From the IMG/VR virus record IMGVR_UViG_3300048574_000038, positions 1 to 62,532 of that record: a stretch of DNA of 62,532 bases; one strand, given 5' to 3'. A model generated the notes under the pieces. It saw only the letters and a program-made list of their open reading frames with translations, made no database searches and was not told the DNA's origin. This document shows, piece by piece, positions 50,286-57,105 of the stretch; positions within the stretch are counted from its first letter, which is position 1; every line of letters starts with the position of its first letter. The DNA is from a virus (taxonomy: Duplodnaviria; Caudoviricetes). The position numbers and the translations under genes are program-made.

Positions 50286-50945
50286 CTAATACTCAATGTC
50301 GTCAAAAATTACAGGAATACTGGCTTTAAGATCATCCAGAAGCGGACACATAAGTTCACGCATCTGCGGGTGAGCAGCTTTAGAAGTACGAAGCTTAAGG
50401 ATGTGTCGCCACTCTCGAAGATTAGCAGTCATTACAACTTCTGTTTTCAAACAAGTAGGAAGCACACAACGTGCAACTTGTGGAGAGCATCCATGAAGAA
50501 GCAACTGTTTATAACAAAGTTCAGCAGCGTTGACTGCGTTATACCAATGTTGCTTTTTTGTGTATACCTGTTCCTTCTCTGCAAAAGAAACGTCTTCGTA
50601 CTTAACAAACGGTGGCAGAAAACTAGGTTGGATAACCGTAATATTATCTTCATCTGTGCTACCGTAGTTGCAATACCGTGTACTCTCTTGCGAAAAAGAG
50701 GCAAGTCTGTGTCGTACAAGTTCGTGACTCACACCACGATCGCAGATGAATCGTACTGTAAGCATGCTGTGCTCCAGTACAGACTCGTGCCCACGACGAA
50801 CAATCTGCTCAAGAAAGTCTACAAAAGATGTATCTGTAGTTCTCTCTTCGGACTTGTAACAAACACGTCCGGCAGCCTCGATAAGTTTCATATCTTCCTT
50901 AGAAGGAAGCTTTTCAATTTTATAACTAGCGTCTATAGTATTCAT
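50286..50945 (-). CDS. thyX: FAD-dependent thymidylate synthase
   Basis: GHESVLEH, SHELVRHR..SFSQESTRY, NLREWRH...LR....AHPQMR. Confidence 0.95.
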   Translation of the reverse strand: MNTIDASYKIEKLPSKEDMKLIEAAGRVCYKSEERTTDTSFVDFLEQIVRRGHESVLEHSMLTVRFICDRGVSHELVRHRLASFSQESTRYCNYGSTDEDNITVIQPSFLPPFVKYEDVSFAEKEQVYTKKQHWYNAVNAAELCYKQLLLHGCSPQVARCVLPTCLKTEVVMTANLREWRHILKLRTSKAAHPQMRELMCPLLDDLKASIPVIFDDIEY

Positions 50946-51032
50946 ACTACCTCAATAAAAATACGGATAATGCTATGCCAAAAGGTAATGCACTATCCGT
51001 ACTAGTCAAGGTACTATAAATACCGAAATGTG

Positions 51033-51109
51033 TGGCAGCAGCGCTAGGATTCGAACCTAGGAATAACCGAGTCAAAGTCGGTTGTGTTAAACCACTTCAC
51101 CACGCTGCT
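51033..51109 (-). tRNA. tRNA-Gln(UUG)
   Basis: Acceptor AGCAGCG/CGCTGCT, anticodon arm ACCGA-CTTTGAC-TCGGT, T arm CTAGG-TTCGAAT-CCTAG, encoded CCA. Confidence 0.92.
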
Positions 51110-51111
51110 AC

Positions 51112-51510
51112 ATCTGGTAGGATAACCTGTTGTGGACTTTTGCTGGATCACACTCCTTCCAGTTATCCTACCAGTTCACCAAGCACAACGCTTGGATAAA
51201 TTCCTCCACCTAACTAGCGCCCTCACGTTACTAGTTACTAGTCAGATGGAGGCACGGCCCTTACAAGGAGGGAGAGTAAGGAGGCTTGCCGTGTAATTTG
51301 TTGGCTACCCAGACCGCCGAGACAGGGTAGCCATTCGTCCATGCGAGGGAGTAGGCACACGACGAAAATTTGTGGCACTAGCAACATGCTACGAGGCTAT
51401 CCTCCTTGTCGATTATACATGTCACTGTGCCAGTAGTTCAGTTTTAACAGCCAGTTATTATCAAACGCCGTACTGCGGTGTCCGGAACATACCGAACTAA
51501 CTGAACAATA
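51112..51510 (-). ncRNA. Candidate structured RNA G (about 400 nt) filling the tRNA-Thr/tRNA-Gln spacer
   Basis: Eight back-to-back hairpins; + strand A-C mismatches become G-U pairs on the - strand (51203-51252, 51373-51432); complementary loops. Confidence 0.8.
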
Positions 51511-51513
51511 AAA

Positions 51514-51589
51514 TGGAGCTAGCGAAGGGACTTGAACCCATAACCCCCTGATTACAAATCAGGCGCTCTGCCAATTGAGCTACGCTAGC
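51514..51589 (-). tRNA. tRNA-Thr(UGU)
   Basis: GCTAGCG/CGCTAGC acceptor, CCTGA-TTTGTAA-TCAGG anticodon arm, GTTCAAGTC T loop, CCA. Confidence 0.93.
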
Positions 51590-51599
51590 AAAAGAAATT

Positions 51600-51684
51600 T
51601 GGTGCGAGAGGTGGGATTTGAACCCACACGCCTTTCAGCAGCGGGGTTTAAAGCCGCCCTGTCTACCGTTCCATACACTCTCGC
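51600..51684 (-). tRNA. tRNA-Leu(UAA)
   Basis: GCGAGAG/CTCTCGC acceptor, loop TTTAAAC, long variable arm, GTGGG-TTCAAAT-CCCAC, A discriminator, CCA; C-C mismatch in the anticodon stem. Confidence 0.85.
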
Positions 51685-52554
51685 TTAATCTTTATCGTAT
51701 CTGGCACGTACAAATCTCGGGTGTCGTAGTGCTTTGCCTGTTTTGCCTTTAAAGGCTACTTCGATAATCTTCGGTAGATCCTCGCGGTGTTCCCACCAAT
51801 GACGAAGCTGTTCATGTGTGGCTTTACCCGGCGCTACAATACATGTATCGCACAAGAACTTACCTACGCAACCAGTAAGCTTTCCTTTACCTTCAACTAC
51901 ACCCGTAACAAGCAAATCTTCTGTGTGATGGATAAGACCCTTAACCCAAAGTTTGCAAGACTTCTTACCCTGCTCATACAAGGAGTCACGCTTTTTAAAT
52001 ACGACACCTTCCCATTTACTGTGGGCAATCACATTCTTTACAAAGCTACGTATCTTATCAGGTGTATGTTTTGCCTCCATAGCAAAAGCAACAACACAAT
52101 ATACGGGTTCTGTTGAAAGAATCTCTGCGTCCGCCATAGCCATCCATAATGTATCCTTGCGCACATTATAAGGCATGTTATTGACAACGATGTCAAAAAT
52201 TTGATAAGTTAGCTTTGTTGTGTCTACGTTTACTTCGCGAAACAGTTGTTCCGAGGCATCTTTAAATTCTGTTCCACAAACTTCCCCATCAAAAACTACA
52301 GGAAACGGTATATGCTTTTGGATTCTTTTACAGACCTCTTTAAGGAAGTCGAAATTTTTGTATACTGTGCCGGTGCGAGAATAACACTCGTCTGTGTTAG
52401 GATCATACAAGCAGCGAACGCCGTCGAATTTACGCTCATATACCCATTCTTCCGGACGAAAATCTGGAGAATCTAAAAGTTTGTCTAAATCAGGATGTGG
52501 CTGGAGCGTTTTAACAGGTTTCGTTGCTTTATCTTTAATTTTACTCACATCCAT
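51685..52554 (-). CDS. ATP-dependent DNA ligase
   Basis: E.KFDGVR, FDGE, IFDI, EGVVFK, W.K, LRHPRF..R.DK. Confidence 0.92.
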   Translation of the reverse strand: MDVSKIKDKATKPVKTLQPHPDLDKLLDSPDFRPEEWVYERKFDGVRCLYDPNTDECYSRTGTVYKNFDFLKEVCKRIQKHIPFPVVFDGEVCGTEFKDASEQLFREVNVDTTKLTYQIFDIVVNNMPYNVRKDTLWMAMADAEILSTEPVYCVVAFAMEAKHTPDKIRSFVKNVIAHSKWEGVVFKKRDSLYEQGKKSCKLWVKGLIHHTEDLLVTGVVEGKGKLTGCVGKFLCDTCIVAPGKATHEQLRHWWEHREDLPKIIEVAFKGKTGKALRHPRFVRARYDKD

Positions 52555-56737: not shown

Positions 56738-56837
56738 TTTAAAGTTTATTAAGCTTAATATATATATATATATATATATTAAAGTTATTTAAAGCTAATA
56801 TTATATATATATATATATATATATTAAAGTATTTAAG
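56738..56837. repeat. Duplicated (TA)10-11 microsatellite unit
   Basis: TTAA(TA)10TTAA palindrome at 56755-56782 and (TA)11TTAAAGT at 56802-56830. Confidence 0.9.
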
Positions 56838-57105
56838 TTAGTTTAATAAACTAAATTTTCTTTGCTTCTTTCTTTTGTTCGAAGCTTTTTAGTTCAAAAA
56901 CCAACGAAAACACAACCTCGCAGCAGACCCTAGTTGGGAATTGCCCAAAGTGCGTTCATAAAAGATAGGGTCAAATGCTCAATAGACAAGGTGGGAAGTT
57001 GAAAGTAACTCCTGCACAATCAACTTCCGCATCTTGTTTGCGTGGGATTCTTCATGGGCTAGGCCACAAGCCCCTTTAGCAGGGTAACAAGTTCCGATAA
57101 TCACC

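Follow-up and report, generated by a model that had tools for sequence, protein, structure and literature searches.

Here, we describe a hairpin, H8, in the tRNA cluster of a podovirus-like phage as a putative docking site for 30S ribosomal subunits. H8 is predicted to be the final stem-loop of a non-coding RNA (ncRNA) of ~400 nt embedded in the cluster, and its loop carries an extended Shine-Dalgarno (SD)-like motif without a start codon. This reading, which draws on folding and duplex predictions, is put forward tentatively and is given somewhat less than an even chance. Nearly as likely is the alternative that the complementarity to the 16S rRNA is coincidental; H8 would then be a structural element conserved in the transcript of the tRNA operon, with the ribosome being uninvolved. 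Should the loop bind 30S subunits, phage and host would interact in a way that is new, the loop would be a compact natural ligand of the anti-SD sequence, and one of the many structured RNAs that lie unexplained in phage tRNA clusters would gain a function.

The phage genome and its tRNA locus

The window, i.e. the whole stretch of DNA analysed, is identical with a single IMG/VR virus record of 62,532 bp, for which a completeness of 94% is estimated. It derives from a podovirus-like phage of ~62 kb. The structural module with genes for the large terminase, the portal/adaptor, the major head protein, an internal virion protein and a protein of 2086 aa is encoded on the + strand, and the replication module comprising primase, DnaB-like helicase and family A DNA polymerase on the - strand. 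A long (TA)n and AT-rich palindromic tract at 56745-56848, in the gap after the helicase gene, is possibly a replication origin. The nearest named phages infect Proteobacteria and show less than 30% polymerase identity. Public runs with near-identical sequence originate from wastewater and sludge.

All elements of the locus are located on the - strand in the order ligase, tRNA-Leu, tRNA-Thr, ncRNA, tRNA-Gln and ThyX (Table 1). The tRNA trio of Leu-UAA, Thr-UGU and Gln-UUG has in common that each member reads A-ending codons. ARAGORN finds these three tRNAs only and no further tRNA or tmRNA. Among the 4227 families of Rfam, likewise, only the three tRNAs pass the gathering scores, and the extra matches at E <=10 all overlap the tRNA genes.

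Relatives were collected from IMG/VR with a polymerase profile (A1), which yielded 178 of them with a top identity of 55%; the best 80 of the 178 stretches, corresponding to 78 distinct loci, were kept. All five complete relatives (G001-G005; 45-55% polymerase identity) are devoid of tRNA genes and also of the ncRNA. Any tRNA was found in two (L029, L042) of 38 scanned loci taken from the 78 distinct ones, and in seven related loci the polymerase-side genes succeed one another with short gaps only. Judged by these comparisons, the tRNA/ncRNA block is an accessory and lineage-specific element that was inserted recently between the genes for the ligase and ThyX.

No relatives were returned when the ligase or the polymerase was used as a single protein query, and the ThyX relatives reach at most 58% identity. 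Close relatives with 97, 84, 80 and 63% polymerase identity (P0001-P0004) are present in ENA or Logan only. A scan of genome contigs gave four loci, the best of which (L162, 42% polymerase identity) is too distant to name the host. L162 is a contig of 60,355 bp, the size of a phage genome, in the MAG bin of an uncultured member of the Desulfovibrionaceae; it is probably a phage contig binned into the MAG and gives a weak hint at the host.

The spacer between tRNA-Gln and ThyX harbors a long hairpin of its own (50940-51021, - strand) with a folding energy of -35.3 kcal/mol (z = -6.75; 0 of 200 shuffles). In this hairpin, the SD (UUGAGGUAG) and start codon of ThyX are paired with a strand of the UACCUUGA type lying upstream, and the inner 14-bp stem (~50962-51001) followed by UUUUUAUU is terminator-like. 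The spacer diverges from the window in at least one relative, in which position 50955 is joined to 51033.

Table 1. Coordinates of the features of the tRNA locus (positions in the window)
Feature	Position	Strand	Remarks
tRNA-Leu(UAA)	51600-51684	-	ARAGORN, Rfam; upstream end of the cluster, directly 3′ of the ligase gene
tRNA-Thr(UGU)	51514-51589	-	ARAGORN, Rfam
Structured ncRNA, ~404 nt	51110-51513	-	Predicted chain of hairpins with H8 as the last; between tRNA-Thr and tRNA-Gln
Second SD-like site ACAAGGAGG	51401-51409	-	Perfect 9-nt complement of CCUCCUUGU (51271-51263, H5 loop)
Hairpin H5	51253-51293	-	Loop with two anti-SD-like CCUCCUU heptamers, 51284-51278 and 51271-51265
Hairpins H7 (51180-51195) and H6 (51203-51252)	51180-51252	-	With H8, block near-unchanged in relatives (X2, X1 and X19 records)
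Hairpin H8	51114-51174	-	Perfect 13-bp stem 51114-51126/51162-51174 and 35-nt loop 51127-51161
Extended SD-like motif AAGGAG-U-GUGAUCCAGC	51142-51158	-	Complementary to the 16S 3′ end
AUGU spacer, 4 nt	51110-51113	-	H8 stem to tRNA-Gln +1; expected RNase P cleavage site
tRNA-Gln(UUG), CCA encoded	51033-51109	-	ARAGORN, Rfam (65.2 bits)

Hairpin H8 within the structured ncRNA

The folding energy predicted for the ncRNA amounts to -156.8 kcal/mol (z = -5.15) and was matched by none of 100 shuffles. A 49-aa ORF at 51238-51387 was rejected as a coding sequence due to indels of 1 nt and 2 nt inside it in relatives, and the stretch 51110-51513 is thus regarded as non-coding. An HDV-like ribozyme in 51300-51360, a candidate suggested by a resemblance of motifs, was rejected as well: its would-be P2 strand pairs downstream in H4, and it has no Rfam match. 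Covariance models of Rfam for GOLLD, ROOL, tmRNA, ribozymes and 6S gave no match to the ncRNA.

Homologues were searched for at several levels. A 22-mer across the stem/tRNA junction has no match in IMG/VR or in the JGI metagenomes; a 24-mer of the T arm and acceptor of tRNA-Gln has none in IMG/VR and one in the metagenomes, which is an unrelated tRNA-Gln without the hairpin. Among 50,697 phage records, nothing matching the ncRNA was detected by megablast or blastn, and blastn and nhmmer searches of 51000-51700 against 80 and then 160 loci gave tRNA-like matches only (L029, L040). In these searches, in Rfam and in print, neither a homologue nor an RNA family nor a precedent for the H8 element was found.

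Runs of purines and of pyrimidines abound in the ncRNA. Three of the seven AAGGAGG heptamers on both strands of the window lie within 51265-51407; on the RNA, one of them is SD-like (51407-51401) and two appear as CCUCCUU in the H5 loop. From their sequences, ACAAGGAGG and CCUCCUUGU may form a long-range or loop-loop contact.

The arms of H8 comprise 13 nt each, are 100% complementary and lie 35 nt apart. In a context of 81 nt the hairpin is predicted to fold with -28.5 kcal/mol (z = -3.6), a value equalled by none of 200 shuffles. The motif in its loop (51142-51158) reads GCTGGATCACACTCCTT on the + strand and AAGGAGUGUGAUCCAGC on the - strand. Since both ARAGORN and Rfam place the 5′ end of tRNA-Gln at 51109, 4 nt remain between the stem and the tRNA. 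On re-reading, the motif, its strand, the 13-bp stem and this 4-nt gap to tRNA-Gln proved to be exactly as described in the first-pass annotation. The neighbouring genes and both other tRNAs are all encoded on the - strand, so that the RNA would read ...CUGGUAGGAUAAC-UGGAAGGAGUGUGAUCCAGCAAAAGUCCACAACAG-GUUAUCCUACCAG-AUGU-tRNA, the - strand presumably being the transcribed one at H8.

A scan for promoters and terminators revealed nothing convincing close to H8. In particular, the stem is followed by AUGUAGCAG without a U-run, and no intrinsic terminator is reported there by the terminator scan. With up to 3 mismatches, 19 matches to the stem were counted in the window (2 being the arms themselves) vs 13.5 expected, and no further copy of the stem sequence is present in the window. 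Within the phage genome, no target of the loop rises above noise. A stretch of 15 nt at 51170-51184, overlapping the 5′ arm of the stem (in RNA orientation), is 87% identical to 51091-51105, which represents the D-arm and part of the acceptor of tRNA-Gln. This likeness may be due to chance or may be the trace of a duplicated tRNA; the stretch shows no tRNA fold.

The sole ORF starting nearby has a length of 35 aa and a GTG start at 51151. A strong SD on the coding strand with a GTG after it could be taken as the genuine ribosome-binding site (RBS) of a very small or non-canonical ORF. This GTG, however, follows AAGGAG at a distance of only 1 nt, its frame crosses tRNA-Gln, and no ATG, GTG or TTG is located 4-12 nt downstream of the motif, which makes such a site highly improbable. 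No usable ORF follows the H8 motif, in agreement with the earlier statement that a plausible ORF is missing because the frame runs into the tRNA.

According to the first-pass annotation, a motif locked in stable intramolecular pairing would speak against the proposed role. When all 404 nt are folded, a weak pairing is predicted between GGA of the motif and a UCC of the same loop, with unpaired probabilities of ~0.2 for the paired GGA/UCC bases and >0.9 for AUCCA. The predicted cost of opening the motif is ~5.9 kcal/mol, so that by this model the motif is not locked. No internal fold of the loop is dominant: the alternative folds lie within 5 kcal/mol of one another, one of them being a UGGA/UCCA extension with AGGAGUGUGA in a 10-nt apical loop.

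Predicted pairing with the 16S rRNA 3′ end and conservation of the hairpin

According to PMC6107228, 13 nt of the E. coli 16S rRNA (GAUCACCUCCUUA) follow helix 45 as a free tail, and this part of the molecule, GAUCACCUCCUU(A), is highly conserved over ~20,000 taxids. In E. coli the tail is preceded by GUUG in place of GCUG. The 16S ends of two Bradyrhizobium genomes read gcggctGGATCACCTCCTTtct. With such an end, the H8 motif is predicted to form 6 bp (AAGGAG/CUCCUU), a bulged U and a further 10 bp (GUGAUC/GAUCAC, then CAGC), the CAGC pairing with the last 4 nt of helix 45. The 16 bp with one bulge considered possible in the first-pass annotation are thereby recovered as a prediction of 6 + 10 bp, but the free tail accounts for no more than 12 of these pairs, which would be available on the mature subunit; the other 4 need helix 45 to be open.

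RNAduplex assigns -28.9 kcal/mol to the pairing with the 16-nt 16S end and -19.8 kcal/mol to the next best site on either strand of the window. None of 76 dinucleotide shuffles of the whole window reaches -28.9 kcal/mol, the closest attaining -28.5 kcal/mol, and a Gumbel fit gives P ~0.005. For the free tail alone, -17.1 to -21.2 kcal/mol are predicted vs ~-6.5 kcal/mol for GAGGU, the usual SD of the phage. The 41 phage RBSs examined contain 3-7 contiguous complementary bases (none more than 7), and at least 4 in 37 of the 41, which indicates that the host reads SD signals. The predicted pairing of the H8 motif is far stronger than that of any RBS of the phage, and the initial impression of a motif longer than an ordinary SD was borne out.

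By our own arithmetic, a match of 12 nt to the free tail with one bulge anywhere would be met by chance in ~8% of windows as large as the present one. In IMG/VR, two matches to the exact 17-mer were obtained, both in unrelated and tRNA-free settings, and one of them is read in frame as K-E-C-D-P-A; the 13-mer also occurs inside a 195-aa ORF in L020. The motif is a clear outlier for the window, yet within chance for a scan of many windows, and it is its context that sets the H8 motif apart from chance instances. Full-text searches of the literature yielded no report of a phage RNA whose action consists in occupation of the anti-SD. Several of these observations weaken the 30S reading: the four helix-45 pairs need opening or are coincidental, and one shuffle comes as near as -28.5 kcal/mol. 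The ~8% chance figure, the occurrence of the 17-mer and the 13-mer elsewhere and the lack of a precedent found in print count against it as well.

The + strand resembles the 16S end with one inserted base, as would be expected if the 3′ end of a 16S rRNA gene had once been captured and had left a remnant in antisense orientation to the tRNAs. The similarity of the flanks, however, is at chance level, since their score is reached by 68 of 300 shuffles on the left and 66 of 300 on the right, and no SSU rRNA match appears even at E <=10, so that such an origin has very little probability. A 16S-tail-like sequence, TGGATCACCTCCTTTCG, is also found outside any rRNA gene in genome contigs of two Bradyrhizobium species (L168, 1499-1516, and L170). 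It precedes tRNA-Gly(UCC), encoded by the same strand, by ~145-180 nt, so this 16S look-alike, too, is located beside a tRNA, with a polarity opposite to that of the phage element.

The conservation data are Logan contigs from four runs. In X1, a run labelled RNA-Seq but judged 'probably DNA', a 155-nt contig with a depth of 1689 shows 0 differences over 51033-51187, and a ThyX variant of similar high depth has 10 listed differences between 50688 and 50775. Over the four runs, 18 of the 21 listed ThyX differences fall on third codon positions (own arithmetic), with 170 more being unlisted. A diverged contig of X2 (record 17) has 20 differences in 154 and 50 in 293 bases of ThyX. Its sequence leaves that of the window between ThyX and the tRNA, of which it lacks 2 nt, and its end at 51124 is shared by the window-like contig of X2. 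From 51095 onwards a single X2 contig takes over with a depth of 17.9 vs 6.1 and 6.6, which is about the sum of the depths of several strains. Over 174 nt this contig has 3 substitutions (51226 and 51234 in H6, the third without a listed position) and one lost A (51138) in the A-run of the loop. This 1-nt loss recurs in X9, for which no further change is listed in the hairpin. The tRNA-Gln itself varies (2 nt deleted at 51089; A>G at 51062), and no change is listed in the stem or the motif of H8. In the X19 metatranscriptome, one 251-nt contig covers 51033-51231 and continues past the tRNA 3′ end into non-window sequence; thus, it shows neither a mature end nor transcription.

These sequences suggest that strains 10-17% apart in ThyX share H6-H8 almost unchanged, including the loop. 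We infer the origin of the contigs from diverged relatives through depth only; the strains are linked by depths, by contig ends and by an overlap of 30 nt, which we take for the k-1 overlap of the assembly, and no contig bridges them. Taken as a sequence comparison, the conservation of H6-H8 speaks in favor of an RNA with a function. Since it extends over the entire 3′ part of the ncRNA (~51095-51268), the motif is not singled out by it. Regarding the check proposed at the outset, conservation of the motif versus its flanks, the motif is indeed kept in the relatives, and so are the H6-H8 flanks.

The conservation of the entire H6-H8 block, and not of the motif alone, fits the assumption that the match to the 16S rRNA is coincidental. 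H8 could then act as an exonuclease barrier at the ncRNA 3′ end or as an RNase P/E/III determinant for pre-tRNA-Gln, or it could be bound by another RNA or by a protein of the phage or the host. Given the many purine and pyrimidine runs of the ncRNA, including 3 of 7 AAGGAGG heptamers and the 9-nt internal complementarity, AAGGAG may serve RNA-RNA contacts inside the molecule. Furthermore, the UGGA/UCCA pairing within the loop (-19.9 kcal/mol) could explain part of the extension, and chance is possible at the level of the scan. Such a structural role is at odds with the finding that the contigs assigned to diverged relatives keep the loop unchanged along with the stem, as a purely structural hairpin should tolerate changes in the loop. 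In addition, the first CCUCCUU of H5, the candidate partner of AAGGAG, is altered to CCCCCUU in the X2 variant (loose end at 51268), where the H8 motif is intact; this speaks against a conserved kissing pair between H8 and H5. Sites of RNase III usually comprise about two helical turns of duplex, and the 13-bp stem of H8 is short of this length. Weighing these points, we consider the coincidental origin a serious competitor that ranks directly behind 30S docking.

Another explanation would place the feature at the DNA level, the inverted repeat being a protein-binding or recombination site or a passenger in a recently exchanged tRNA cassette; the identity among relatives would then result from recent transfer and not from selection. 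The inserted nature of the tRNA/ncRNA block, as seen from the five complete relatives without tRNA and the seven related loci with short gaps, is in favor of this explanation. The contigs also differ beyond the tRNA 3′ end (51033), and this sharp break fits a recently exchanged cassette, too. H8, however, is located in the middle of the block and not at the edge of the shared part, the tRNA varies inside the block with no listed change in the stem or motif of H8, and the stem sequence is without another copy in the window. We therefore regard a role at the DNA level as improbable.

Proposed mode of action and relation to known systems

RNase P generally cleaves at position +1 of tRNAs. A cut at +1 of tRNA-Gln would leave H8 at a distance of 4 nt from the 3′ end of the released ncRNA, and if cleavage by RNase P is slow, H8 would represent a 5′ leader hairpin of pre-tRNA-Gln. 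The 35-nt loop would display the extended SD without a start codon and pair with the free 16S tail over 12 nt with one bulge, and this pairing would dock the 30S subunit without starting translation. As an outcome, the anti-SD might be occupied and translation disturbed, or the RNA might be protected or localised in a ribosome-dependent manner. As the mRNAs of the phage use the same anti-SD, a pure decoy would hurt the phage, too.

A more invasive variant, which we consider unlikely, is that the terminal loop of the ncRNA is a trap for the 16S 3′ end, in which the whole free tail would be paired and the last pairs of helix 45 invaded. This might take place on immature 30S subunits and would block SD-dependent initiation or the maturation of the 16S 3′ end as a means of host takeover. 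Phages retune host translation with proteins and tRNAs; the trap, if true, would mean that an RNA and not a protein targets the ribosome. A decoy, a ribosome recruiter and an inhibitor of 16S maturation, the three functions proposed in the first-pass annotation, are indistinguishable by the computed premises, and all of them are putative. Altogether, that interpretation is partly supported, as every premise accessible to computation holds in the predictions and the functions are putative.

Several known systems resemble the phage element in part. The large, ornate ncRNAs GOLLD and ROOL are often located beside phage tRNAs and are represented in Rfam. The ncRNA described here is likewise a large structured RNA adjoining phage tRNA genes; unlike them, it has no Rfam match. 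The tRNA cluster of phage T4 contains two small stable RNAs, species 1 and 2, which are co-transcribed with the tRNAs and whose function is unknown. Similar to these, our ncRNA sits in a phage tRNA cluster and would be released by tRNA-processing enzymes; the likeness is positional.

Extended SDs ahead of start codons have been described for rpsU in Flavobacteria (PMC9976891) and for S. aureus (10.1101/2025.06.19.660503). Like such ordinary or extended SD sites, the H8 motif has Watson-Crick complementarity to the 16S 3′ tail. Unlike these ribosome-binding sites, it lacks both an ORF and a suitably spaced start codon, and its complementarity is longer than that of any of the 41 RBSs of the phage.

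SD-like sequences without a start codon are also represented by the STAB-SD and polypurine 5′ stabilisers, such as those of cry3A of B. thuringiensis and of the early RNA of the B. subtilis phage SP82, which are proposed to hold a 30S subunit on an RNA that is not translated from them. These elements have a length of 7-9 nt and are located near the mRNA 5′ end; the bound 30S subunit raises the half-life of the mRNA, which is shielded from 5′ exonuclease in Gram-positive hosts. In contrast, the H8 motif extends over 12 (to 16) nt with a bulge and is presented in the loop of a 13-bp hairpin, and it is a tRNA and not an mRNA that comes after H8. H8 shares with the STAB-SD elements an SD-like sequence lacking an associated start codon, the holding of 30S subunits being a putative property of H8. 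By analogy, the STAB-SD/polypurine class is the nearest functional analogue of H8.
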